A DNA stretch of 64,000 bases from Bacteroidales bacterium. Its GTDB lineage: Bacteria; Bacteroidota; Bacteroidia; Bacteroidales; UBA10428. Below are positions 4,348 to 56,875 of the stretch, in pieces. Every line of letters begins with the position of its first letter. Position 1 is the first letter of the stretch. The translations under genes were made by a program, and so were the position numbers. The notes beneath the pieces are model-generated. The model made no database searches. It was not told the DNA's origin and was given only the letters and a program-made list of their open reading frames with translations. The stretch covers positions 1,358-65,357 of the forward strand of contig JBNKPU010000207.1 of the NCBI GenBank assembly GCA_050295515.1. The letters run 5' to 3'.

Positions 4348-4633
4348 ATGCCCCCCACCAAAATCAAGCAATAAAAAATGGCTTGAACGTTTTAATTCGT
4401 TAACAACAATTGCTAATTTAGAAACTGATATAAAACTATGGGGTCAAACCATATTTCTCCCATCCACTTTCCATCGCTGGAAGGCAAGCTGATTTTACCA
4501 ACAAAATTTTAAAATAAAAAAAATACTATTTACCTTTATCAAAGTAAGCTTTTAGACATCATCAATACACACATTAATTATTCGTATTATTAATATCATC
4601 AGTTCACAAAACCTCAAGAAAACAAAGTACATT

Positions 4634-6160
4634 ATGAAATTTAAATTAGTTTTTCTTCAATTAATCTTCTCGGTGAGTTTATTTTCGCAAAACACCTTGG
4701 AATTAAAGTTTGATTCAATTAACACAAAAATTAACAAAGAAATTTACGGGCATTTTTCTGAACACCTGGGAACATGCATTTATGAAGGAATATATGTTGG
4801 TGAAGATTCTGAAATACCAAATATTAATGGATACAGAAAAGATGTTGTAGAAGCCTTTAAAGAACTAAAAGTACCCGTTTTGAGATGGCCCGGAGGCTGT
4901 TTTGCTGACACATATCACTGGAAAGATGGAATTGGTCCGAAGGAAGACCGCCCTTCAATTGTCAATGTTTTTTGGGGAGGAGTAACAGAAGACAATAGTT
5001 TTGGAACTCATGAGTTCCTGAATTTTTGCGAGTTAATTGGAACAGAACCTTATTTAAGTATAAATGTTGGATCAGGAACTGTACAAGAAGCAACTGAATG
5101 GGTAGAATATGTTACTTCAAGCAATAAAAGTCCAATGACGGATCTACGTAAGAAAAATGGAAGAGAAGAACCATGGGATGTGAAATTTTGGGGTGTCGGA
5201 AATGAAAACTGGGGGTGCGGAGGTGAAATGGCACCCGACTATTATGCAAATATTTTTAGAAATTACTCGGCTTACATAAAAGGAAATAATTTCCAAAAAG
5301 TTATTTGCGGACCATCTGCAAATGATACAAACTGGACGAAAACCATTCTTGCAGGACTAGATGGAAAACTGTATCTCACACAAGGTCTTTCAATGCATTA
5401 TTATACATTGCCCACTGGAGACTGGAGAAGTAAAGGATCATCTATCAACTTTGAGGAAGATATGTGGTTTGCTACTATAAGCAACACTATGTATATTGAA
5501 GATTATATAAAGCAACATTTAAAGGTATTGGATAAATTTGATCCTGAAGGAAAAATTAAATTGATCGTTGATGAATGGGGTACCTGGTACGATAAACTAC
5601 CAGGGACTAAAGATGGTTTTTTACAACAACAGAATACGGTTAGAGATGCTTTAGTCGCAGGAATCAATTTGAACATATTTAACAATCATGCGGATCGGAT
5701 AAGCATGGCAAACATTGCCCAGATTGTTAATGTATTGCAATCGGTCATTTTAACAAAAGGACCAGAAATGGTAAAAACACCTACTTATTATGCCTTTAAA
5801 ATGTACAATGTCCATCAAGATGCGATTCTTGTGCCAACATTTTTACAAACAGAAGAATATACTTATAACAAAAAATCAATCCCAGCGATTACTGCCTCTG
5901 CTTCAATGAAAGAGGGTGTGGTCAGCATTACAATAACAAATGCCAATCCAAATAAGGCCGAAAGTATAGATTGCCTGTTGGGAAAAGATTTTAAATCAGC
6001 TACAGGTAAAATTCTCAATGGAAAAAAGTTTACAGACTATAACGACTTTAACTCAGAAGAGAAAGTTTTTATTTCTGATTTTAAACTGGACAAAGTAAAA
6101 GATGGGAAATTAAGTGTTGCAGTTCCAGCTCATTCAGTTCTTTTAATCCAACTGCAGTAG
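4634..6160 (+). CDS. Alpha-L-arabinofuranosidase, GH51
   Basis: Signal peptide; IYGHFSEHLG..CIY.GIYVG N-terminal signature; acid/base GNENWGCGG; nucleophile region IVDEWGTW. Confidence 0.9.
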   Translation: MKFKLVFLQLIFSVSLFSQNTLELKFDSINTKINKEIYGHFSEHLGTCIYEGIYVGEDSEIPNINGYRKDVVEAFKELKVPVLRWPGGCFADTYHWKDGIGPKEDRPSIVNVFWGGVTEDNSFGTHEFLNFCELIGTEPYLSINVGSGTVQEATEWVEYVTSSNKSPMTDLRKKNGREEPWDVKFWGVGNENWGCGGEMAPDYYANIFRNYSAYIKGNNFQKVICGPSANDTNWTKTILAGLDGKLYLTQGLSMHYYTLPTGDWRSKGSSINFEEDMWFATISNTMYIEDYIKQHLKVLDKFDPEGKIKLIVDEWGTWYDKLPGTKDGFLQQQNTVRDALVAGINLNIFNNHADRISMANIAQIVNVLQSVILTKGPEMVKTPTYYAFKMYNVHQDAILVPTFLQTEEYTYNKKSIPAITASASMKEGVVSITITNANPNKAESIDCLLGKDFKSATGKILNGKKFTDYNDFNSEEKVFISDFKLDKVKDGKLSVAVPAHSVLLIQLQ

Positions 6161-41320: not shown

Positions 41321-41632
41321 CTAAAGGGCATCACATTTTACGTCACATTCGCTTGAATTACAAGTTCCAGACTCTGATGTTTTACAATGATAATAAGTAC
41401 CTTCCTCAGTAACAGTATAGACTCCAATACTATAACTTACAGAGCATTTATCTGATCCACAGGTTTTTCCAGATGGACCTTGCCCACTTTCCCCTGGGGC
41501 AGCCATTGCGTACTTCAATTCAAACAAAGAAGCAAAAGTATTATTACTTTTTTGACTTGAAACTTTATAGTTTATAGCTACAAGTGTAATCAGGCATATT
41601 GCAATGCCAATAATTTTCGTCATGTTTTTCAT
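41321..41632 (-). CDS. Cassette A: small secreted Cys-rich peptide precursor (NVEALA-like leader)
   Basis: 103 aa: N-terminal TM/signal, leader ..SLFELKYAMA|APGESG, then a six-Cys C-terminal region TCGSDKCSV...YYHCKTSESGTCNSSECDVKCDAL. Confidence 0.7.
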   Translation of the reverse strand: MKNMTKIIGIAICLITLVAINYKVSSQKSNNTFASLFELKYAMAAPGESGQGPSGKTCGSDKCSVSYSIGVYTVTEEGTYYHCKTSESGTCNSSECDVKCDAL

Positions 41633-41805
41633 AATAATTTTAATTTTTAATAATTTGAAATATGATTTAATACTTTAATTAACAGCTCCATATAAAGCGT
41701 GCAAAATCATTTTTAATTTTAATTTTTAATAAATACCTCCTTTCTAATTTTATAATAATTTCACATTAAAAAATGTAGATGATTTAGATAGATATATGGG
41801 ATCAA

Positions 41806-42057: not shown

Positions 42058-42106
42058 AATTACCGCTAACTAATTGCTAACTACTAATTACTAATTGTTA
42101 ATTGTC
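42058..42106. repeat. Period-7 tandem repeat array (7 units)
   Basis: AATTACC GCTAACT AATTGCT AACTACT AATTACT AATTGTT AATTGTC. It overlaps the last codons (..TINN*) of the 122-aa ORF. Confidence 0.6.
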
Positions 42107-42468: not shown

Positions 42469-42559
42469 TAATTATCGATGTTCAATGATCAATTACTAAC
42501 TACTAATTGCAAATTACTAATTACTCATCATTCATTATTAATTGTTAATTGTTAATTGT
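42469..42559. repeat. Period-7 tandem repeat array (13 units)
   Basis: Minus strand reads ACAATTA x3, ATAATGA ATGATGA GTAATTA GTAATTT GCAATTA GTAGTTA GTAATTG ATCATTG AACATCG ATAATTA. It fills most of the spacer between the adaptor gene and the 122-aa ORF. Confidence 0.7.
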
Positions 42560-43651
42560 TCATTTTAAAGTACTAAGCACACAAGGCACGTCATTTCCCA
42601 AATGAAGGTTACCTGAAACAATAACCGTATCCAAGTCTTTTAAACCTTCTGTTATTACAACATGAGTACTGTTTTCCTCCCCCGTTGTTACATAATTCCA
42701 TTTAGATACTTGTTCTTTCTGATTGTACGTAAAAACTACTTTCTTACCGGTTCGCAGCACAATTGCATCTTTCGGAATAGCAAGGCATTTTTTGGGTGAA
42801 GACCTAACATAAACTTTAACTGTAACCCCATCATAGAGGGCTGAAGCGCTAGAGTTCAATTCTGCACTTACCATAATCAAACCATTTTCAACTGTAGGAT
42901 TAATTGCGGTTATCGTTCCGTTCGCTTTTAGACTTTCATTGAAAAATGTGAATGCCTGAACTTTTAATCCCTTATTTACTAATACCGATTCTTCTTCCAG
43001 AATATAGAAATCCACTTTTAGCTTACTGTTGTCAATTATAGTGCAGATAAAACCATTATCGAGGTAATTCCCTTCCTTCACATTCATATTGGCAACGGCA
43101 CCATCTATTGGTGCTTTAATATATGCAGACTGGTACTTGTTTTGAGCAATAATAAAGTCAGTTTTTGCCAGTTCAATCCCACTTCTCATTCTGGCATTTT
43201 GTAATAACTCTTTTGGCATATCTGCTATGTTTTCATCCGAGTAACCCAATGCCACAAGTTTATCTGAGAAGTCAATTTTAGCCTTCTCATACAAGACTTT
43301 CTGTCTCAAATAAGAATGGTATAATTCAAGAGTGTCCAAAATTGCAATGATCTGACCGGCTTTCACTTCCTGGCCTGTATTGACATTTATTTTAAGAATA
43401 GTTTCACTAAGCCTGGACCTGACATCTACTTTTTTTACGGCCGTTACTTTACCGTTAGCAGACAATTCTTTCGAGAAATTATCTGACTTAAGAACTATTG
43501 CCTCCACTTCAGCTGCGGTAGTGATTTGTTCAACCTTATCCTCTCCGGTTTCATCATCAGCCGCTTTTGCTCCTTTGTTACATCCGTATACTACTGCCAG
43601 CAGTAAAAACGAAAACAGAATGCTTTTAATATTAAATTGATTACTATACAT
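42560..43651 (-). CDS. Efflux RND transporter periplasmic adaptor (membrane-fusion) subunit
   Basis: Lipobox AVVYGC and a biotinyl-lipoyl-like/HlyD_D23 pattern (VKAGQIIAILD ... IKAPIDGAVANMNVKEGNY). Confidence 0.85.
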   Translation of the reverse strand: MYSNQFNIKSILFSFLLLAVVYGCNKGAKAADDETGEDKVEQITTAAEVEAIVLKSDNFSKELSANGKVTAVKKVDVRSRLSETILKINVNTGQEVKAGQIIAILDTLELYHSYLRQKVLYEKAKIDFSDKLVALGYSDENIADMPKELLQNARMRSGIELAKTDFIIAQNKYQSAYIKAPIDGAVANMNVKEGNYLDNGFICTIIDNSKLKVDFYILEEESVLVNKGLKVQAFTFFNESLKANGTITAINPTVENGLIMVSAELNSSASALYDGVTVKVYVRSSPKKCLAIPKDAIVLRTGKKVVFTYNQKEQVSKWNYVTTGEENSTHVVITEGLKDLDTVIVSGNLHLGNDVPCVLSTLK

Positions 43652-43658
43652 TGCTCAT

Positions 43659-43742
43659 CGATTATTATTTACTCAATACTAATTGTACATTATTAATTAC
43701 ACATTACACATTGATAATTACTCATTACTAATTGTCAATTTC
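43659..43742. repeat. Period-7 tandem repeat array (12 units)
   Basis: CGATTAT TATTTAC TCAATAC TAATTGT ACATTAT TAATTAC ACATTAC ACATTGA TAATTAC TCATTAC TAATTGT CAATTTC. It overlaps the RND1 stop (..TISNE*). Confidence 0.7.
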
Positions 43743-49004: not shown

Positions 49005-49487
49005 CTAGCAACTTGCACTAAAACATGATTCTGAAGAACCATCTCCACACTTTTGCACATATTGTGTAATTTCCTTTTTTTCAGAATACGTAACACCACC
49101 ACCAGTAGAACTTACATTTAAACCTACTGTACGTTCCTCTCGTGTAAGACATTTATAATCATAAGGGTAATAATCACCAGGTGTCCCGTAATCATCACCC
49201 CAGTAATCGCTGAAACCTGTTGCATCATAGCTTATAAAGTTGCCTGCTGCATCATAGGCATCGCTTAATGAGAAAGTAGATTGCCCTGAGTAATAATCCT
49301 CATCAAAATAGTATGTTATACCATTTTGCGTGAAAGTAATATAGCTTTTGCCTTCGGTTGATACTTGAGCAATAGCTTTCTTCGCTCGAAGATCTAAGGT
49401 TGAATTTTTGGAGTTAATATTTATAGATAGGTTAAAAGCCATAACTCCTACAACAGAATACAATAATACAAATTTAATAATTTTCAT
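49005..49487 (-). CDS. Cassette B: secreted Tyr/Asp/Gly-rich peptide precursor with Cys-containing C-terminus
   Basis: 160 aa: signal/TM, leader ..LDLRAKKAIA|QVSTEG, C-terminus ..YDYKCLTREE...QYVQKCGDGSSESCFSASC. Confidence 0.6.
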   Translation of the reverse strand: MKIIKFVLLYSVVGVMAFNLSININSKNSTLDLRAKKAIAQVSTEGKSYITFTQNGITYYFDEDYYSGQSTFSLSDAYDAAGNFISYDATGFSDYWGDDYGTPGDYYPYDYKCLTREERTVGLNVSSTGGGVTYSEKKEITQYVQKCGDGSSESCFSASC

Positions 49488-49570
49488 TTTTTAATAATTT
49501 AATGTTTGTTTAAATAATCTAGTAATCTAAATAAAAAGGATATAACCCCTTAATTTCTAACTATTTATTT

Positions 49571-50403
49571 ATCTTTGTCACCTCACCTCCTTTCTTCTTT
49601 GTCCGCCATAGCAATGCGACGGCGGAATGGGTTTAGGAGCCGGGCAGGACAAACCTGGTATCGCAAATACTCCTGAGTTTGTTCCTGCCTTTTTTGTCTC
49701 CATTTTTATAGTTGTTTAACTTTCTTGTGCATGTTAACTTTTGCAATAACATTACATAGCCATTTCTTAAACCTTGCGTTAAGGAAATAGTACAATCAAA
49801 TTGTTATGTTTAATATTCTTTATCCGAAAAGTCAATTAGAAAAACCAAAGCCTAAGTATACATGAATAAAAGAAGCATATTCATTTAATAAAATGTAGCA
49901 GGTGGCACAATAGTTCAAAAAAATGACAATTAACGGTTTATTTTACATTTAGGTTTGTATTTTCATTTTTGAGTTGGGTTTTAGATTTATTTATGGATTT
50001 ACTATTATTTAATAATTAACATGTTTTTATTGACTGCAATTTTATTTTTCACAAAACCAGGAAATTCAATCTCACAATTTTATTGTGCATACCTAAGCAA
50101 TAGCTTTCAGAATCTCCTATTGTACAATTTTAAAATAACATCTTGACTACACACCCCGAAGGTTATGTGGGTCAAATATAGAAAAAATCCGTTCTTTCGC
50201 AATTGTACCTGGGTAACAAAAAAAAGTATTTCCGTAACATTTCACCCTAAAACATGCTTATATAGCTTCATTATAATCGGTTTGCAGGTATCCATTTATG
50301 TTTATTCTACAATTTGATCAATATTTTATTTTCGTATCTAAATAATTCATAGCTCATATTTAGTTTATTATTCCTAAAGGTGTATGAGGGAATGTATATT
50401 AAA
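49571..50403. repeat. Long non-coding direct repeat, copy R1 (pairs with 55785-56631)
   Basis: By-eye alignment gives about 95 percent identity over the first roughly 430 nt and high identity over the last roughly 200 nt, with a diverged middle. No ORF of 60 aa or more. Confidence 0.85.
49583..49695 (+). ncRNA. Candidate small RNA or structured element inside R1
   Basis: A -7 box TATCTTTG (49570-49577) sits at the exact left edge of the repeat. The pyrimidine-rich 5' end is CACCTCCTTTCTTC. There is a hairpin TCCGCC/GGCGGA. A long hairpin GGCAGGACAAAC/GTTTGTTCCTGCC (49643-49689) is followed by T6. Confidence 0.35.
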
Positions 50404-50594
50404 TCCTCACCATCCAGAGGTAATACTTTTGGCTCTAACTCTAAAGATTTTATTTTAACCTTAGATCCTTCCAATTCTCGTTGTGATTTTTACTGGAACA
50501 ATTCATCAAGTAGTTTGTGAGATAATATTCCTATTAACAGTACTGTGACTAGAATAACTGTTGAATTTTGGATCCTGACTATTAAGATTATTTG

Positions 50595-50751
50595 CTCTAA
50601 TTAGTGTTTGTCAATAAAGTCCAACTACTGCGTTATTGCTCAAAATTTAAATCCTCATATACACAAGTATACTGCGATTTAAATTTTTCACACGCCTTGT
50701 ATTTGAACTTTATTCCTCAAACCCCCGACTTTATGGACAGACTCTAATTAG
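50595..50751. mobile_element. MITE-like element with 10-bp target-site duplication
   Basis: CTCTAATTAG occurs at 50595-50604 and 50742-50751. Terminal inverted repeats are TTTGTCAATAAAGTC (50607-50621) and the reverse complement of GACTTTATGGACAGA (50727-50741), matching 13 of 15. An internal 11-bp hairpin AAATTTAAATC/GATTTAAATTT is also present. Confidence 0.45.
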
Positions 50752-51063
50752 AGTTGTTAGATTATTAGGCATATCAGTTTTTTTGTTAAGCTCAAGGTAT
50801 ATATAGCCACAACCGTTTCCGGAGGTGGATTTCACATTTTCAACCTCATTGATTAGCGACAATTGTGCTTCCAGCACCGAAGTAACCCTTTGTTCAATCA
50901 TTGCCGGTGATGCCCCTGAATAGCCAAAAGAAACCCTAATACTCGAATTGCTATACGATGGGTATAGCTGCAAAGGTATCTTGAAAACCAATGCCAAACC
51001 AGCAAGCGAGAGCATGGTGAAGATGGTGATTATGGTGAAGCTATTTGAGGTTTTTCGGGGCAT
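50731..51063 (-). pseudogene. Truncated duplicate of the RND1 5' end
   Basis: MPRKTSNSFTIITIFTMLSLAGLALVFKIPLQLYPSY... aligns with RND1 residues 1 to about 97. By-eye nucleotide identity is roughly 85-90 percent. Homology stops near 50770, followed by unrelated sequence and a stop. Confidence 0.8.
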
Positions 51064-51179
51064 GAAGTATTGGATGCATTGTTTGATTGTTTTTTTTCTA
51101 AAATGAGCTATATATATTCTTTAATACTCAATTAAATTGTTATAAGAATCGTTTAGTTTCTATAGACTATGTTAAAAAG

Positions 51180-51629
51180 TCATAAATTTGTGGCTGTTGG
51201 TATAGCATATTCCAGCATCTCCTTTATGCTACATTTAATAAACAAGTTGTTATATTCTCTTTCCGTATTTGATCTGATGCTTATAACTTTTCGTTGAAAC
51301 CCTAGTTCTTTATCTTTTGTGTTAAAATCTATTGATAACTTTGTTGAGTCCCCTGGCAAGACTATATTAGTGTCAAGCATGAATCCAGTACAGCTACATT
51401 CAGGAGACACTTCCTTTATAATTAATTTTTCGCGTCCAAGGTTTTTAACGAAAAATATTGCATGAACCAAAGTATCATTTGAAATTGTACCAAAATCAAT
51501 TACTTTCTTTGAAAACCCTATTTGAGTTTGCACATTATCTACCTTTTCATTAGATATCTCATGTTTATTTTTAATATTACAACTATAAACATAAAAAGCA
51601 ATTAAAAAAATCCAATATTTTTTTTTCAT
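51180..51629 (-). CDS. Cassette C: DUF1573-like lipoprotein
   Basis: Lipobox YVYSC. FGTISNDT...FFVKNLGREKLIIKEVSPECSCTG...LPGDS matches the DUF1573 pattern. It has a 4-nt overlap with propeller C. Confidence 0.75.
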   Translation of the reverse strand: MKKKYWIFLIAFYVYSCNIKNKHEISNEKVDNVQTQIGFSKKVIDFGTISNDTLVHAIFFVKNLGREKLIIKEVSPECSCTGFMLDTNIVLPGDSTKLSIDFNTKDKELGFQRKVISIRSNTEREYNNLFIKCSIKEMLEYAIPTATNL

Positions 51630-52831
51630 ATTAGCTCATCTTTTAATTTCATAAGTATAATTATTGGATTATCTTCTGGAGTAATTGTACCTAGCCCTTC
51701 AACTATTTTATATTTTTCGCCAGGACTATACATAAACTCATTAGCAGGTATAATAATATTTATCAGATAATTTTCATGCCAGATTTCATGATATATATTA
51801 CTGCTTCTTGTACTAAAGGTCACATAGGCTGGAAAATCGGATATGTCATTTTCTATCATCCTGGCATGAAATGTTTGATTCTTTTCTTTTAAAACTATAT
51901 ACTCTGCTGGATATCTATTGTCTTTGCTTTCAAAAAAGTTATATGTTATAGCCAAAATTTTTGTGTTATTTATTGTCAGCACAGGTAAAAAAGCTTTACC
52001 CTCAGCCTTTTCATTAAGATAAGCCATTTGCTCTTTAATTGATTGCTTCCCTATAGAGTTGTCTATCCCATAACCCCCAAAATCTACAGAAAACACTGGA
52101 AAAGCTGTTAAATCCTGTATCTGATAAAAATTATTGTCATACATTATCGAAACGAACAGTTCATTCTTGTCATTGATTGTTAAATTCTCTTTAATAGCAG
52201 AAAATGAAAGATTATTATTATCGATTTTTTTATCAAACAAGGTTTTCTTTACTTTGTTGTTTCTAACTATAACAAGGCCAGCATTAGTCTTCTTTCCATT
52301 AATAATATTCTGGTTTTGTTGTGTGGCAAAATAATATGTGTTATTGATTTTTCTTGAAGAATTAGAAAATACAGGATCCATATCATTTTTATCAATAAGG
52401 TTAAAGGATAAGTTCGAATATTTTATAAATTTTCCTCTCCTGGTAAATACTTCAATAAATTCTTCATTATCATCAATAAAAACTCCAGCGAAATTTAAAT
52501 ATTCATCAGGACCCTTGCCTCTTTTATCTAATTTCGAAACATAATTTCCCTGTTTATCAAATACAAAAACCACCATCTGACTTACATCACACGCGTATAT
52601 ATATTTATTTTTAATTATTAATTTTGCAATCCTGCCCATCACACAATTTGAATCTGTTTGCAGTCTAATGTATTTTACAGAATCAACAAACTCAGACAGC
52701 TTAACCTTTTCTTGTGCTTCTATTGGATTAATTTCTAAAATATTTAAACTGCTATTTGTTTTGTTTTCAGCATTGCATCCTGATATCAGTAGTCCAATAA
52801 ACAAAAAACCAATAATTATCTTCATATCCAT
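51626..52831 (-). CDS. Cassette C: 6-bladed beta-propeller lipoprotein
   Basis: Lipobox LLISGC, GKGPDEY, VVFVFDKQGNY, C-terminal DNPIIIL. Confidence 0.75.
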   Translation of the reverse strand: MDMKIIIGFLFIGLLISGCNAENKTNSSLNILEINPIEAQEKVKLSEFVDSVKYIRLQTDSNCVMGRIAKLIIKNKYIYACDVSQMVVFVFDKQGNYVSKLDKRGKGPDEYLNFAGVFIDDNEEFIEVFTRRGKFIKYSNLSFNLIDKNDMDPVFSNSSRKINNTYYFATQQNQNIINGKKTNAGLVIVRNNKVKKTLFDKKIDNNNLSFSAIKENLTINDKNELFVSIMYDNNFYQIQDLTAFPVFSVDFGGYGIDNSIGKQSIKEQMAYLNEKAEGKAFLPVLTINNTKILAITYNFFESKDNRYPAEYIVLKEKNQTFHARMIENDISDFPAYVTFSTRSSNIYHEIWHENYLINIIIPANEFMYSPGEKYKIVEGLGTITPEDNPIIILMKLKDELI

Positions 52832-52928
52832 AATTGTAATTTTAGTTTTAATTGTCTTTGCTCAGAAGGAGCAAAAACGTGATTTAGTTTAGTTCGTAAT
52901 TGCATCAAAAAATTTCTTATTAAAAGAT

Positions 52929-52953
52929 AGGTGCTCTATTAAAACGAGCACCT
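52929..52953 (-). terminator. Hairpin with U-rich tail after peptide C
   Basis: Minus strand reads AGGTGCTC-GTTTTAATA-GAGCACCT followed by ATCTTTTAAT, 9 nt after the stop at 52962. Confidence 0.5.
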
Positions 52954-52961
52954 GTCATTAT

Positions 52962-53234
52962 TTATTCACATGTACATCCCCAATCATTACATACTGGGGT
53001 GGTTTCACCATCGCAGAATGTTGCTGTGCAATCAACTCTTTGCTTATATTCCCATTTACCAGTATTCGGATTATAAACATATTCAGTTATATACTTTGAA
53101 CACGAATTACAACTTGAACCTTCTGACTGTGCAAAAGCTATTGTTTGATTTGCATCATTTGTGAAAACTTGAACATTAACAAATAATACAGTAAGGACTG
53201 CAAGTGAACTTATACTTATTAAAATTTTCGTATC
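52962..53234 (-). pseudogene. Cassette C: Cys-rich peptide gene lacking a canonical start codon
   Basis: Own translation: (PDT)KILISISSLAVLTVLFVNVQVFTNDANQTIAFA|QSEGSSCNSCSKYITEYVYNPNTGKWEYKQRVDCTATFCDGETTPVCNDWGCTCE*. There is no ATG/GTG/TTG between the in-frame TGA (53235-53237) and the hydrophobic segment. It is absent from the ORF track. Confidence 0.45.
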
Positions 53235-53453
53235 AGGTCAGTTTAGGTCAACAAATAGAGCTTTCAGATTTGCCGTATTAAGATCTGTCGCAGATACGGT
53301 GTTGAAAAATGACATGAATGTTCTAAACTCGTTGAAAATTATTGCTGGCTTGCAAACTGATCTGCAACCATTTTTTTAATTATAGTGCGCATTCTAAGAT
53401 AAGTATGAATTACTGTACGTCTAATAATTTCTCAGCGCTAATGCTAATAAAAC

Positions 53454-54098
53454 CTAATTATAAAAATCATCCTTATTTCGTGAATATAACTTAGAAATTG
53501 ATCTTAGATATTTTTGAGTTAAGTTACTGTCAATCTCATTTGTTTGAAACAAGAAATGAATACTAAAATCTTTATCCAACATCATAAGGTAATTCTGATA
53601 CATTTCTAAATCCGGTATATTCAGTGAAGTACAATAAGATTTAACACCTATTAATCTTTCATAGACACCTATTTCAGCTTTTCTCTTACTATCTATCAAT
53701 ACAACCATGCCTGTCTCGGAGATTCTATCATTTTCTTTTCTCAAAAGTAACATAAGATCATCAATACAGGTTCTACATGAAATACCAGATGAATAGAGCA
53801 CTAGCAATGGTAAATCATTTTTTAGATCAGCCAAATCCCGTTTATTGTTATCTTTATCAAATAGAGTAGCTGTACTATCTAAATAATACTTATCGTATTT
53901 TATAAAATCAAACAGCCTATTTTCCATCTGGCTTATTATTTCTTCTTTTTCTTTCAGTAAACTTATCTGATTAATATTTTGTTGAGTTCGCTGATACTTT
54001 TCCTTAAAATACAAAAAAAGCAAATTACAGCACAGGAGGAAAAAGAATAAAAAAATAAAAATTACAACCCCCTTCTTTTTTAACACTGAATTATTCAT
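53454..54098 (-). CDS. Cassette D: membrane-anchored thioredoxin-fold CxxC protein
   Basis: TM anchor; LPLLVLYSSGISCRTCIDDL (CxxC). Confidence 0.65.
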   Translation of the reverse strand: MNNSVLKKKGVVIFIFLFFFLLCCNLLFLYFKEKYQRTQQNINQISLLKEKEEIISQMENRLFDFIKYDKYYLDSTATLFDKDNNKRDLADLKNDLPLLVLYSSGISCRTCIDDLMLLLRKENDRISETGMVVLIDSKRKAEIGVYERLIGVKSYCTSLNIPDLEMYQNYLMMLDKDFSIHFLFQTNEIDSNLTQKYLRSISKLYSRNKDDFYN

Positions 54099-54100
54099 AC

Positions 54101-55252
54101 CTATAACCCGTTTAATTCATATATTAGCAAAATTGGATTGGAATTAATATTAACCTTTATTTTCTCAAGAGCTTCAAATGTTTGTTTTGATATCATTCCA
54201 TCAGCATAAAGACTGCCTAACTCCTTTAAATAAAATGGCTCCAGGATGCAAACAAATTTGTTGTTGTTTGTGCAATTTATTTGTGTAAATGGGTTCATTC
54301 CCCCACATACAAATCCGCCGGTTTTTTTTGAAAAAAACAATTGTTTTATTTCCCCTTTTTGAATAAAGGTAAAATAGTAGTAATCTTTAGTCTCATGGAA
54401 ATTGTCAATCCCAACAGCGTAGTCACTATTCATATTATAGTCATGAATTTGTAAGGCAACCTCTTTACTAAAACCTTTGTCAATCTGGGCATCGTCGAGG
54501 GTGTTGCCCCCAAAATCGATGTGTACGTTCTCAAATAGAGAATCGTTTGCAATCTTGTAAATTGTATACGAACCAAAAGTTGGCCTTAGGTTAATGCCAT
54601 TATAACATGAATTAAACTGTTTACCTTCATAGATTATTCTTTTCAGGGGCAGATATTTATTCTCCAGCATTTTTCCTTTAGAAGACATTGTATAGATTAA
54701 AAAAGGCATTGATTTTTCATTTCTTTGCACACCAAAAGATCCTTGCCACAAATAAAACACACTACTGTTGAAACTTGCCATTTGTAGTGGGTTTAAAAAC
54801 TCGTCCTTATTTTTAATTTTAACAGATTTAACAAACCTTCCATTTAAAGTATACATAAGAATACGTTGATAAGACAACAAACATATAAGACTGTCTTCTG
54901 TTACTGAAAAATCCCTTAGCTCAATGAATTCACCTTCTCCCCGTCCCTTTGCACCTATCCGTTGAATAAAATTGCCTTCCGGTCCAAATACCAAAAGCGA
55001 ATGAGTCTGTAGGTCCTGAATAAAATATCTGTTAAACTTAAACATAGCTTTTTTTACCGAACCAATTAATAACAGTTCACTAGTCTCCAATTGTTTGACA
55101 TCAATTATGTTTAATTTTTCTTTTAAATCATTATTTGCCCCCCTTGATAAATCAATTTTTATTACTTTCTCCGATTTCTTAATTGATGATTGATTGCTTT
55201 GTGAACAAGAAGCAAAACTAATGACAATAGCCACAATAACTAAATTTCTCAT
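54101..55252 (-). CDS. Cassette D: 6-bladed beta-propeller lipoprotein
   Basis: Lipobox ISFASC, GRGEGEF variant of the GPGEY motif, LLVFGPEGNF, C-terminal SNPILLI. Confidence 0.75.
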   Translation of the reverse strand: MRNLVIVAIVISFASCSQSNQSSIKKSEKVIKIDLSRGANNDLKEKLNIIDVKQLETSELLLIGSVKKAMFKFNRYFIQDLQTHSLLVFGPEGNFIQRIGAKGRGEGEFIELRDFSVTEDSLICLLSYQRILMYTLNGRFVKSVKIKNKDEFLNPLQMASFNSSVFYLWQGSFGVQRNEKSMPFLIYTMSSKGKMLENKYLPLKRIIYEGKQFNSCYNGINLRPTFGSYTIYKIANDSLFENVHIDFGGNTLDDAQIDKGFSKEVALQIHDYNMNSDYAVGIDNFHETKDYYYFTFIQKGEIKQLFFSKKTGGFVCGGMNPFTQINCTNNNKFVCILEPFYLKELGSLYADGMISKQTFEALEKIKVNINSNPILLIYELNGL

Positions 55253-55266
55253 TTATTTTATCTTTA

Positions 55267-55298
55267 AAAGCCTAAAAAGGAGAACCTTTTTAGGCTTT
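55267..55298 (-). promoter_or_regulatory. Strong hairpin between peptide D and propeller D
   Basis: Perfect 14-bp stem AAAGCCTAAAAAGG / CCTTTTTAGGCTTT with a 4-nt loop, 21 nt after the peptide D stop. Confidence 0.55.
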
Positions 55299-55318
55299 AT
55301 TGTTTTTTTTAATTTCAA

Positions 55319-55627
55319 TCAATAACAAGTACCTGGAACGCAGTCTGTGTCAACACATGTAGTCCCTTCGTTTAGATAACAAGCTATATATAAACCCGGG
55401 ATGTATTTATGCTGGTAAGGGTGCCAAAAAGCACAATTCTGACAACTTCCCCCCCTTGGAGTATCTCCATTCTCATTTTGAGCTAGTGCCAATTTAAATA
55501 AGCTATGAAGATTAGTGTCTTGGTCACTTGTATTCATATTGTTAAATGCCAATCCAATAGCTACATTAACAAATAAAGCTAGTGCTAAGGCAGCAAAAAA
55601 TGTTCTTTTCTTGTTATTCTGTTTCAT
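55319..55627 (-). CDS. Cassette D: small secreted Cys-rich peptide precursor (NVEALA-like leader)
   Basis: 102 aa: TM/signal, leader ..NLHSLFKLALA|QNENGD, six-Cys region SCQNCAFWHPYQHKYIPGLYIACYLNEGTTCVDTDCVPGTCY. Confidence 0.7.
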   Translation of the reverse strand: MKQNNKKRTFFAALALALFVNVAIGLAFNNMNTSDQDTNLHSLFKLALAQNENGDTPRGGSCQNCAFWHPYQHKYIPGLYIACYLNEGTTCVDTDCVPGTCY

Positions 55628-55784
55628 TTCTCTATTTTTATTAGATAATTGATTTTTACACTATATTATTAATGCCATCATAAAGCATTAATGCATAATT
55701 AAATTTTTTCAATCACAGCAAACAATTTTGAATAGCCCAAAAGTTCTATATTGAAATCTGTAATTTATATTTATTATTTACCTT

Positions 55785-56631
55785 ATCTTTGTCACCTCAC
55801 CACCTTTCTTCTTTGTCCGCCATAGCAATGCGATGGCGGATTGGGTTTAGGAGCCGGGCAGGACAAACCTGGTATCGCAAATACTCCTGAGTTTGTTCCT
55901 GCCTTTTTTGTCTCCATTTTTATAGTTGTTTAAATTTCTTGTGCATGTAAATTTTTGCAATAACAATACATAGTCATTTCTTAAACCTTACGTTAAGGAA
56001 ATAGTAAAATCAAATTGTTATGTTTAATATTCTTTAGCCGAAAAGTCAATTAGAAAAACCAAAGCCTAAGTATACATGAATAAAAGAAGCATATTCATTT
56101 AATAAAATGTAGCAGGTGGCACAATAGTTCAAAAAAAAGACAATTAACGGTTTATTTTACATTTAGGTTTTTATTTTCATTTTTAAGTTGGGTTTCAGAT
56201 TTATTTATGTATGGATTTTAGTATTATTTCATTTGTTGAAGAATTAACATGTTAATGTTGACTCCGATTTTAGGTTTTGTAAACATGAAATACTATGTTA
56301 CAATTTTGATGTTTTCGAACTTAATTATATAATTTTCAGAATCTACTTTACTTCTAATAATATCTTGATTTTATACAACACAAAAGTCATGTAAGACAAA
56401 TATAGAGAGAATCTATTCATGCGCAATTGTACCTGGGTAACAAAAAAAAGTATTTTCGTAACATTTCACCCTGAAAACTGCTTATATAGTGTCATTGTTA
56501 TAATCGTTTCTTTCTGCAATCCTTTTTATTAATTCTACAATTTGATCAATATTTTATTTTCGTATCTAAATAATTCGTAGCTCATATTTAGTTTATTATT
56601 CCTAAAGGTGTATGAGGGAATTTATATTAAA
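55785..56631. repeat. Long non-coding direct repeat, copy R2
   Basis: Collinear with 49571-50403, with the same left edge at the TATCTTTG box and the same right edge ...GAGGGAATKTATATTAAA. Confidence 0.85.
55797..55909 (+). ncRNA. Candidate small RNA or structured element inside R2
   Basis: Same -7 box (55784-55791), same two hairpins, and a terminator stem (55857-55903) followed by T6. Substitutions relative to R1 fall in loops or outside stems. Confidence 0.35.
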
Positions 56632-56875
56632 ACCATTTTTAAATGTCTGGTTTATGCTCTTTTGCCCTCTATTGTCAGTTATGGTAATAAAGGTTGTTTA
56701 TGAAATTCTAACCTCTCTGAGAATTCAATAGTTTTTCTAGAATTCATTTTTGACAAAAAATCAAAATATTGCCTTCTCGCTTAGTAGATAGTAGAGATTG
56801 AAAAATGCTTTTTTACTTATAGACCTTTTGGGGGGAACATTTCAGGGAATTGTCTACTAAAAAAAACATATTCTC

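Follow-up and report, generated by a model that had tools for sequence, protein, structure and literature searches.

[quoted passage not shown] Only extended SDs engage their ribosomes (PMC9976891, PMC13000457); targets of this kind are extremely rare in the class (PMC9976891), have been reported essentially only for rpsU and rpsR and signal ribosomes lacking bS21 (PMC9976891, PMC13000453). Indeed, the extended SDs of rpsU, which encodes bS21, and of rpsR prefer ribosomes from which this protein is missing (PMC9976891, PMC13000457). In Escherichia coli, the standby site of tisB combines a 5' structure with a stretch that is single-stranded, some 100 nt upstream, and is masked by IstR-1 (PMC6690012). 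In the cry3A mRNA of Bacillus thuringiensis, an SD-like sequence at -129, the STAB-SD, pairs with the 16S 3' end and does not direct initiation, and the leader, whose primary end lies at -558, is processed to a stable 5' end adjoining the STAB-SD (PMC4113751). Here, we describe a non-coding element of Bacteroidota that resembles each of these systems in part.

The window, a stretch of 64,000 nucleotides from a Bacteroidales genome, carries cassettes with small peptide genes, A, B and D among them, and, upstream of B and D, a long direct repeat:

41321-41632, minus strand: cassette A peptide gene
49005-49487, minus strand: cassette B peptide gene, 160 aa with a Cys-rich C-terminus
55319-55627, minus strand: cassette D peptide gene, 102 aa, Cys-rich
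49569-50406, no strand assigned: direct repeat copy R1, upstream of minus-strand cassette B, with mosaic identity to R2
55783-56634, no strand assigned: direct repeat copy R2, upstream of minus-strand cassette D
50173-50180 and 56397-56404, minus strand: -7 box TATATTTG
50173-50262, minus strand: conserved island S2, 89% identical, containing the -7 box at 50173-50180; R2 equivalent at about 56397-56486
50295-50406, no strand assigned: conserved distal segment S3, 95% identical

Genes for export and maturation (RND/MFP, VKOR-thioredoxin, LanC-like and DUF5128) lie next to the peptide ORFs, and the cassettes have a secreted-peptide profile that, from sequence, appears bacteriocin- or RiPP-like. 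Assignment to the type I toxin-antitoxin class was rejected on account of the GG-type or signal-like leaders, the Cys-rich cores and the export genes, the regulatory layout alone being similar. Root metatranscriptomes contain transcripts of the cassette B peptide gene.

The non-coding regulatory head of these Cys-rich peptide cassettes is present as two copies, R1 and R2, the sole ones in the source genome: blastn detected no third copy in the window, and two copies per genome fit the contig depth in DNA runs. An earlier note on this DNA had described a collinear, non-coding direct repeat of about 840 bp with about 95% identity over its first 430 nt or so. This description is borne out. The copies are 86% identical over 884 columns (blastn), with 95.7% identity in segment 49566-49705 and 95.6%, ungapped, in segment 49706-50000. 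Beyond these, identity drops to 65-71% (50001-50172), recovers to 88.9% (50173-50262), falls to about 50% (50263-50294) and ends at 94.6% (50295-50406), the flanks being 34-49% identical. The nearby RND 5' fragment is 86% identical to its parent at the nucleotide level and 69% at 4-fold degenerate sites. By this comparison three repeat segments are far better conserved than nearby neutral sites, whereas the middle of the repeat is as diverged as the RND 4-fold sites. The three conserved segments of the distal repeat are either constrained or homogenised by gene conversion. S2, in which the minus-strand -7 box is kept in both copies as the note had stated, is, judged from its sequence, a candidate operon promoter. 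The repeat unit also contains a GC island of 52% within a background of 19-30% GC. A 41-aa minus-strand ORF at 49578-49703 was rejected as a gene, since among 5.8 billion proteins only its R2 copy matches.

How far does this conservation reach beyond the source genome? Past its first 140 nt, no conservation of the 840-nt block was found in other genomes, and the remaining 700 nt or so are specific to the source genome. The gene-proximal 140 nt, in contrast, are by their sequence a member of a widespread, uncatalogued Bacteroidota element, conserved in 48 metagenome loci. Its parts in the window are as follows:

49566-49705, minus strand: family element copy 1, covariance-model match of 68.5 bits, aligned with 21 metagenome members
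55780-55919, minus strand: family element copy 2, covariance-model match of 62.3 bits
49569-49581, minus strand: right half of the core, GTGACAAAGATAA, whose plus strand reads TTATCTTTGTCAC and includes the -7 box TATCTTTG
49570-49577 and 55784-55791, plus strand: -7 box TATCTTTG, fitting the Bacteroidota TAnnTTTG consensus
49585-49595, minus strand: 11-mer AGAAAGGAGGT, exact complement of the Bacteroidia 16S rRNA 3' tail ACCUCCUUUCU
55799-55809, minus strand: R2 11-mer AGAAAGGTGGT, with one mismatch, within the SD core
41735-41745, minus strand: AGAAAGGAGGT, third exact copy, preceding the cassette A peptide gene by 103 nt
49602-49626, no strand assigned: extra hairpin TCCGCC...GGCGGA, between the pyrimidine stretch and the core
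49643-49654 / 49677-49689, with T6 at 49690-49695, plus strand: GC hairpin H0 and T6 (R2: 55857-55909)
49534-49551, minus strand: small hairpin AAGGGGUUAUAUCCUUUU in the cassette B leader, 3' of the core, R1 only

On the peptide-gene strand, copy 1 is composed of an A-tract, the covarying GC hairpin, a pyrimidine stretch, the extra hairpin and the core, which consists of AGAAAGGAGGU, exactly complementary to the Bacteroidia 16S 3' tail, followed by GUGACAAAGAUAA. Read from the opposite strand, this sequence comprises a -7 box, a 16S-tail look-alike (the plus-strand reading of the 11-mer) and a hairpin followed by a U-tract. H0 accordingly resembles an intrinsic terminator when read along the plus strand and, along the minus strand, a 5' stem-loop after an A-tract. 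The note had reported both copies to start at a perfect -7 box, followed by a 16S-like string (CACCTCCTTTCT in R1, CCACC in place of CCTCC in R2) and a stem with T6, and all three were found as described. The TCCGCC/GGCGGA hairpin that it listed as conserved is present, but alignment with metagenome members identified it as a lineage-specific insertion and not as a family feature; independent, analogous insertions are found in two other loci (L046 and L053). The -7 box match is not significant alone, TANNTTTG occurring 85 times in the window against 101 expected.

A pattern made from the 23-nt core matched the 48 metagenome loci and none of the viral contigs, and a covariance model recovered 52 instances with E-values down to 1e-21. 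At nearly every locus a small gene for a Cys-rich secreted peptide, with a GG-type or hydrophobic leader, starts 60-200 nt downstream of the element and in the same orientation; orientation and distance are fixed in about 50 loci. No regulator gene common to the family loci was seen. The Rfam/Infernal search that the note had proposed gave no family at or above gathering threshold for the element: Rfam 15 (4227 models) detected only a tRNA in the whole window, only chance snoRNA or leader matches at positions 49400-50600 with E up to 10, and nothing at the element in twenty family loci. The covariation analysis, also proposed there, showed that H0 covaries in the family, with 91.9% of cells paired against 76.8% in shuffles (0 of 500 shuffles reaching the observed value) and 8 of 10 pairs changing on both sides. 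Its arms keep a constant distance of about 20 nt, but the loop between them differs in sequence and is long for an intrinsic terminator. Equivalents of the cassette B leader hairpin, also covarying, follow the core in about 26 of 42 members.

Tests of which strand is read as RNA are indecisive. G.U-type cells in H0 are more frequent in the antisense reading (18) than on the gene strand (8), and the tract adjacent to the hairpin is asymmetric, with 5.5 of 8 positions A on one side versus 1.65 of 8 T on the other. Unpaired gene-strand stretches are A-rich throughout (A/(A+T) 0.58-0.83), so that the A-tract need not be a terminator tail. An unbiased count at the downstream hairpin gave 5 G.U versus 5 A.C, and folding z-scores fail to separate the strands. 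In about 75% of members a perfect, invariant TATCTTTG lies 60-70 nt from the hairpin and U-tract, and the -7 box is kept in near-variants of the core; about 25% keep the core and miss the terminator hairpin. The invariance of the right half of the core is overstated because the search pattern forced that half, and variants with a different right half were seen among RNA contigs.

The 16S-tail complement is unusual, since ribosomes of the host group normally ignore such sequences. We took the tail sequence from oligonucleotides used for F. johnsoniae (PMC7797042); the 11-mer is exactly the SD oligonucleotide complementary to that tail (PMC7797042). It lies 103-182 nt upstream of three peptide start codons in the window, as compared with 60-200 nt across the family. 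The GAA 5' of AGGAGG is nearly invariant in the family though not forced by the search pattern, and GAAAGGAGG has only 5 other occurrences in 0.8 Mb, both strands counted. R2 alone among family members has a T at its mismatch position. Around the 11-mer of cassette A there is neither a -7 box nor a hairpin.

Unstranded metatranscriptome contigs of relatives are continuous through the core into the peptide ORF. Two runs yielded contigs of 233-238 nt extending from the pyrimidine stretch through the core to the ORF at depths of 70 and 640, versus 6-78 for the upstream gene, and the same continuity was seen at one further locus (L015). Because the contigs run through it into the ORF, the core is very probably part of the peptide-mRNA leader. 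As assembled, the abundant contigs begin near the hairpin. A fixed, adapter-joined RNA end lies 1 nt 5' of the hairpin stem and is compatible with either strand; fixed ends in random-primed libraries are usually RNA 5' ends. The plus-strand unit of the window was found in no RNA run. As to the note's promoter-to-terminator small RNA, the recurrence of box, 16S-like string and GC hairpin with U-tract in the family, together with hairpin covariation, supports it, while the members lacking a terminator and cassette A with its 11-mer only speak against it as a general feature.

We tentatively favour, at somewhat less than an even chance, a model in which a peptide-mRNA leader with an orphan extended SD is paired with a divergent antisense small RNA (sRNA), in the manner of tisB/istR-1. 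The minus-strand peptide mRNA would have a long leader with a GC stem-loop 5' of the 16S-complementary site. This site would dock the 16S tail of the 30S subunit with no initiation there, and docking would either i) stabilise the mRNA or ii) provide a standby site. Only an extended complement could engage the tail, because Bacteroidia ribosomes keep it sequestered. In most members, including R1 and R2, a divergent antisense RNA of about 85-115 nt would start from the -7 box in the core, with the 16S-tail look-alike as its 5' end and the GC hairpin and U-tract as its 3' end, and would mask the docking site in cis and also in trans on other cassettes. The data show that both copies belong to the family, that peptide genes accompany it, that the hairpin covaries and that RNA is continuous over the core; the strand of each RNA, 30S docking and the existence and action of the sRNA are inferred. 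This sRNA would not be essential to the family, because either the terminator or the -7 box is missing from about a quarter of members and from cassette A, and right-half variants occur. The R2 mismatch inside the SD core, the hairpin loop of about 20 nt, the indecisive strand tests and the failure to find the unit of the window in any RNA run count against the model, as does the predicted pairing of the pyrimidine stretch with the 11-mer, by which the latter would be concealed from ribosomes.

It is possible, if on the unlikely side, that the element has a cis role in the peptide mRNA and no other, and that no functional sRNA is made. The GC hairpin would then be a protective 5'-terminal stem-loop left by processing, the 11-mer a STAB-SD-like stabiliser or docking site, and the opposite-strand -7 box a coincidence of the conserved GACAAAGAUAA motif. 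The RNA contigs that continue through the core into the ORF and the fixed, probably 5', end at the base of the hairpin fit such a leader, as do the members without terminator, cassette A with just the 11-mer and the A-rich unpaired stretches of the gene strand. Not explained by it are the invariant TATCTTTG at its set distance from hairpin and U-tract in about three quarters of members, the G.U-compatible mismatches that are commoner in the antisense reading of the hairpin, and GUGACAAAGAUAA, which has no known role in mRNA.

A stand-alone plus-strand sRNA of about 110 nt that acts in trans, mimicking the 16S tail with its 5' end and pairing with SD-like targets elsewhere, is unlikely; the complement in the peptide leader would then be only a by-product of gene position. 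In its favour, promoter box, 5' end and terminator-like hairpin have been conserved together, and a single-stranded 5' seed with a terminator hairpin resembles Bacteroides sRNAs such as FopS and GibS (PMC11697453). Against it, orientation and distance to the peptide gene are fixed in about 50 loci, some members lack the terminator, cassette A keeps the 11-mer at the same distance without promoter or terminator, part of the supposed seed is base-paired inside the RNA itself, and Bacteroidia offer extremely few extended SDs as targets (PMC9976891).

Distinctly unlikely, in our view, is an extension in which the orphan 11-14 nt complement ties peptide production to ribosome state and the sRNA also titrates the SDs of rpsU and rpsR. 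The complement would engage only bS21-lacking, 'specialised' ribosomes, because only an extended SD frees the tail from the bS21/bS18/bS6 pocket. If true, the antisense RNA would be a free copy of the 16S tail, rpsU and rpsR would be the only other extended SDs of the cell, and a circuit would link ribosome composition with peptide warfare.

Could the element operate as DNA? Two inverted repeats, GGCAGGAAGC-N20-GCTTCCTGCC and GGAAAC-N4-GTTTCC, might together with the invariant core be bound by a dedicated regulator or an alternative sigma factor, or form a hot spot at which recombination exchanges cassettes. Constant arm spacing with variable loops and indecisive strand tests are in line with this idea, as is the structure of paralogues within one genome, which in two lineages are alike upstream of the core 3' end and unlike downstream (94-98% versus 33-62% in the window; 84-97% versus 46-52% for the L009/L026 pair). 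In the window, R1/R2 homology stops exactly at the core right half (49569-49581), and the exchange boundary is exactly the 3' end of the core. Nevertheless, we regard a DNA-level role as very unlikely: RNA pairing predicts compensatory changes such as those seen in 8 of 10 stem pairs, transcription of the region is high, the 16S-tail match is exact and includes unforced positions, and no regulator gene common to the loci was seen.

A functionless, recent neutral duplication, suggested by there being only two copies with 430 nt at 96%, is hardly credible given the mosaic identity (only the middle, at 65-71%, matches the 69% of RND 4-fold sites) and downstream cassettes only about 23% identical at the protein level, and for the proximal 140 nt it is already contradicted by their conservation in 48 unrelated metagenome loci.

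The element adds a second class of sequences that are perfectly complementary to the tail. Dozens of uncultured Bacteroidota conserve it some 100 nt ahead of Cys-rich secreted-peptide genes, perhaps paired with an antisense RNA resembling the 16S tail. It provides a case in which docking of the rRNA tail apart from translation initiation can be tested directly in this phylum, and a handle on the regulation and exchange of bacteriocin- and RiPP-like cassettes. In genomes and metagenomes of Bacteroidota, its 23-nt core can serve as a marker in searches for small peptide genes that lack annotation.

Among known systems, the multicopy sRNAs FopS and GibS of Bacteroides share with the element several paralogues, a conserved 5' stretch, a terminator hairpin and a canonical -7 promoter (PMC11697453). 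They show no sequence or model match to it, Rfam 15 being silent at the window sites; they belong to polysaccharide utilisation loci whereas the element heads peptide cassettes, and its conserved 5' stretch is partly paired in an sRNA that is predicted. The extended SDs of rpsU and rpsR likewise are complementary to 9-13 nt of the 16S 3' tail. The rpsU SD, however, drives initiation from a normal start-codon distance, whereas the SD described here lies 80-180 nt upstream of the peptide start, and the only adjacent start, a GUG 4 nt after GGAGG, leaves too little room for a long SD-antiSD helix. The cry3A STAB-SD is alike in geometry: here the 11-mer is about 100-180 nt and a candidate promoter some 680 nt ahead of the gene, with abundant RNA starting near the element. 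The anti-SD is free in Firmicute ribosomes and sequestered in those of Bacteroidia, protection of cry3A is a block to RNase J1 that is only hypothetical here, and the window element has a conserved GC hairpin and GUGACAAAGAUAA in addition. Finally, the tisB standby site is sequence-nonspecific and S1-dependent whereas the window site is an exact 16S-tail complement; TisB is a membrane toxin whereas the window peptides are secreted, Cys-rich and adjoined by export and maturation genes; and, compared with istR-1, the candidate sRNA, predicted from sequence, would overlap its target in cis. What the two loci have in common is a small-peptide gene accompanied by a divergent small RNA gene, established in E. 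coli and proposed here, that is complementary to the site (PMC6690012).

The gene-proximal 140 nt of the repeat block (the proximal unit) belongs to a widespread Bacteroidota element not described before, which has a perfect complement of the 16S rRNA 3′ tail at its centre and is located upstream of genes for Cys-rich peptides. The earlier note had reported a non-coding direct repeat of about 840 nt, with copies R1 and R2, and had read its beginning (a plus-strand -7 box, a 16S-tail look-alike, a hairpin and a U-tract within ~110 nt) as a small-RNA-like unit. The repeat is confirmed and every sequence detail listed was found in the window, while the interpretation is supported in part. The features concerned are:

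49569-50406, repeat copy R1, two-copy direct repeat
55783-56634, repeat copy R2, two-copy direct repeat
49602-49626, extra hairpin in R1/R2, inserted between pyrimidine stretch and core
50731-51063, minus strand, duplicated RND 5′ fragment, truncated, 86 % identical to its parent
41735-41745, minus strand, exact AGAAAGGAGGT, third site, 103 nt before the peptide gene of cassette A (41321-41632)

The contig depth of the block is ~2x that of its flanks in DNA runs, as expected if each genome has two copies. In GC content the proximal unit forms an island (52 % versus a 19-30 % background; whole window, 34.7 %). [quoted passage not shown] No conserved ORF was found within the block, tblastn with all window and locus proteins gave no pseudogene remnants, and plasmids and viral contigs held no match. 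A 41-aa ORF was discarded as a coding gene for lack of homologues, the block was discarded as a mobile element because terminal inverted repeats are absent and copies number only two, and identity of the unit with FopS/GibS was rejected. The Rfam search that the earlier note had suggested returned no family for the block at gathering or permissive thresholds, a 20-mer of the hairpin region was absent from the genome and metagenome collections scanned, and RNA structure in 49706-50000 was not significant (z = +0.65 and +1.71 on the two strands). Conservation outside this genome holds for the proximal unit, as a family member, and not for the rest of the 840-nt block, which is common to no relative found.

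How was the family recognised? The source lineage is poorly sampled, with one 48 % homologue of the DUF5128 protein and, in an RND-anchored genome scan, a best RND relative of 34 % identity. Two syntenic contigs (L004 and L005; RND homologues 72 %) have only ~30 nt in common with the block. On the gene strand this stretch reads GAAAGGAGGT[GT]A[GT]GTGACAAAGATAA, and it precedes the first peptide gene by 90-130 nt. A scan of metagenome contigs for AGGNGGTNANGTGACAAAGATAA gave 48 loci, in samples of sediments, digesters, sludge and fermenters, and none among the viral contigs scanned; dereplication left 42 units with full flanks. A covariance model recovered 52 instances at E < 1e-3 and no third copy in the window. 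R1 and R2 are clear members. Read 5′ to 3′ on the peptide-gene strand, the anatomy is:

upstream gene, often co-directional (e.g. DUF5128, Wzy_C/TPR, LanC-like, VKOR-thioredoxin, glycosyltransferase)
A-tract
GC hairpin, 10-13 bp, loop ~20 nt
CGG, then a pyrimidine stretch (e.g. CUCCUCC)
A-rich linker
core, AGAAAGGAGGU(G)A(U)GUGACAAAGAUAA
AT-rich spacer, then 1-2 small hairpins
gene for a small Cys-rich peptide, its start 60-200 nt past the core

The peptides have leaders of GG type (MKKLGKL.INPEKV.KNEEL.NLKGG) or hydrophobic ones. Covariation, which the earlier note had proposed to analyse, supports the predicted GC hairpin: with the alignment fitted to the model, paired cells make up 91.9 % versus 76.8 % in shuffles, 0/500 of which reach the observed value; slid controls give 35-60 %, and 8 of the 10 hairpin pairs vary on both sides. 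About a quarter of the members keep core and peptide gene without the GC hairpin (the L004 group, L020/L022/L040, L043 and L054). Four loci (L004, L008, L012 and L027) have heptads (CATTGCA, GAATGAA) upstream of the core in its place, similar to the tandem arrays of (AATTACT)n and relatives in RND/MFP operon spacers (window 42069-42096, 42491-42568 and 43661-43740; L004 1-400). At the site of the extra hairpin of R1/R2, L046 and L053 carry independent insertions.

The core contains AGAAAGGAGGU, an oligonucleotide used as the fully complementary Shine-Dalgarno (SD) to the Flavobacterium johnsoniae 16S 3′ tail ACCUCCUUUCU (PMC7797042). Family positions that were unforced by the search pattern also fit the 16S complement, namely the GAA 5′ of AGGAGG and usually the preceding A. 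In the window the 11-mer occurs twice exactly and once with one mismatch, all on the minus strand, at distances of 103-182 nt ahead of the cassette A, B and D peptide genes; the cassette A copy has a minimal context, with neither -7 box nor GC hairpin. Outside full elements, GAAAGGAGG was found 5 times in ~0.8 Mb of fetched sequence, counting both strands. Bacteroidia ribosomes sequester this tail through bS21, bS18 and bS6, and it is engaged by extended SDs only, e.g. that of rpsU (PMC9976891, PMC13000457). A frame GTG-ACA-AAG-ATA follows GGAGG by 4 nt (window 49563-49581, minus strand), with its first stop at codon 7 in 25/42 members and at codons 6-8 in 32/42; this could reflect a conserved mini-ORF of six codons (MTKIxx) or else a TAA kept at a fixed distance. 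The mini-ORF GUG-ACA-AAG-AUA was not adopted, as its start lies only 4 nt past GGAGG and it is missing from some variants.

Is the element transcribed? The window's own unit is not present in public RNA runs, and root metatranscriptomes show part of the B160 gene only, as a contig of 205-208 nt in two runs, 100 % identical to window 49200-49407; the source organism thus expresses cassette B in a plant-root habitat. The locus of a relative, L013, is held in 23 RNA runs, two of which contain the same 233-238 nt contig (depth 70 and 640; upstream gene, 6-78), which extends from the pyrimidine stretch across the core and on into the peptide ORF, and overlapping RNA contigs cross the entire element of L015. 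In one RNA run an adapter joins the sequence exactly 1 nt 5′ of the stem of the hairpin (gene-strand coordinates), marking a fixed end of RNA at the base of the hairpin. RNA contigs are strandless, and their boundaries were not used as RNA ends because most are graph branch points between paralogous variants. We conclude only that the core is transcribed, most simply within the peptide mRNA leader, and that some RNA ends at the hairpin base. At L013, contigs from 3 RNA runs (depth <=261) and one run of unspecified kind join 1313 to 1455, skipping 141 nt and placing AGAAAGGAGGTAATG directly before TTATG, an extended SD 7 nt ahead of a peptide start codon; the junction may come from a paralogue in the genome or from processing of the RNA.

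Two readings of the strand are mutually compatible. We tentatively favour their combination, in which the peptide leader would dock the 16S tail through an orphan extended SD, a site that an antisense sRNA would mask in most members. The gene-strand leader draws on the continuous RNA contigs, the fixed orientation and distance to the peptide genes, the members lacking a terminator together with cassette A, the RNA-contig variants bearing a different right half, and the general A-richness of unpaired gene-strand segments. Pointing to a plus-strand sRNA are a perfect TATCTTTG (-7 box) kept in near-variants, a U-tract that follows the hairpin on the plus strand alone (5.5/8 A vs 1.65/8 T), a consistent predicted length of 85-115 nt and, modestly, the commoner G.U-compatible mismatches in the GC hairpin on that strand (18 vs 8). 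A leader without any sRNA seems rather unlikely, and the sRNA by itself is unlikely. Thermodynamics was rejected as a guide, as raw energies favour the antisense strand for the upstream part and the gene strand for the downstream part, a preference gone after the dinucleotide-shuffle control; energy z-scores do not discriminate the strands, nor does an unbiased G.U count on the downstream hairpin.

R1 and R2 both lie upstream of minus-strand cassettes. The products of each cassette are a small peptide rich in Cys (B160, D102), a lipoprotein of the DUF5128 six-bladed propeller type and a protein with a CxxC motif, and an RND/MFP pump comes after the cassette genes. Judged by sequence, cassettes B and D are ancient paralogues (B404 and D383 are 23 % identical; B160 and D102 are not alignable) with near-identity confined to the non-coding head. 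Between R1 and R2 this identity is a mosaic: 95.7 % in the proximal 140 nt, 95.6 % (ungapped) from there to 50000, 65-71 % with indels over 50001-50172, 88.9 % over 50173-50262, ~50 % in the next 32 nt, 94.6 % over 50295-50406 and random level beyond the block. The truncated RND fragment diverged from its parent under coding constraint (codon positions 1/2/3, 90.5 / 93.7 / 73.7 %), and its 69 % identity at 4-fold degenerate sites sets the neutral divergence of the neighbourhood at ~30 %, in agreement with the block middle and not with the three conserved segments. Within one genome, paralogous heads are alike only upstream of the core 3′ end, both in the window (94-98 % vs 33-62 % downstream) and, independently, in L009/L026 (84-97 % vs 46-52 %). 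This pattern suggests that heads were duplicated or underwent gene conversion, the breakpoint lying at the invariant core, and that cassettes were exchanged between conserved flanks; with two copies, purifying selection and homogenisation cannot be separated. A site acting at the DNA level, which would suit such a breakpoint, is improbable beside a transcribed core, and neutral duplication is scarcely credible.

Other sequences accompany the heads. In L026, on a contig unrelated to the window, the repeated head block also contains an RND N-terminal fragment (1125-1283 and 4622-4816 of the reverse complement), so that heads and RND fragments are found together more than once. A MITE-like element of ~160 nt (50595-50753) separates R1 from the RND 5′ fragment, with 27-nt terminal inverted repeats, a word depth of 2400-2900x vs ~8x for its flanks in two DNA runs, dozens of distinct flanking sequences and related copies in L042. 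An open frame that would encode a Cys-rich peptide (~52962-53237, minus strand) lies in the interval separating cassettes C and D. It lacks an ATG and an upstream head, and could be a cassette that has decayed or that uses an unusual start.

The layout of the element matches two known systems, and the two-part proposal of a docking SD and a masking sRNA therefore takes its form from them. [quoted passage not shown] The cry3A STAB-SD, whose layout is also matched, does not initiate translation; this SD sits close to the processed 5′ end of a long leader, binds to the 3′ end of the 16S rRNA and makes the mRNA more stable (PMC4113751).
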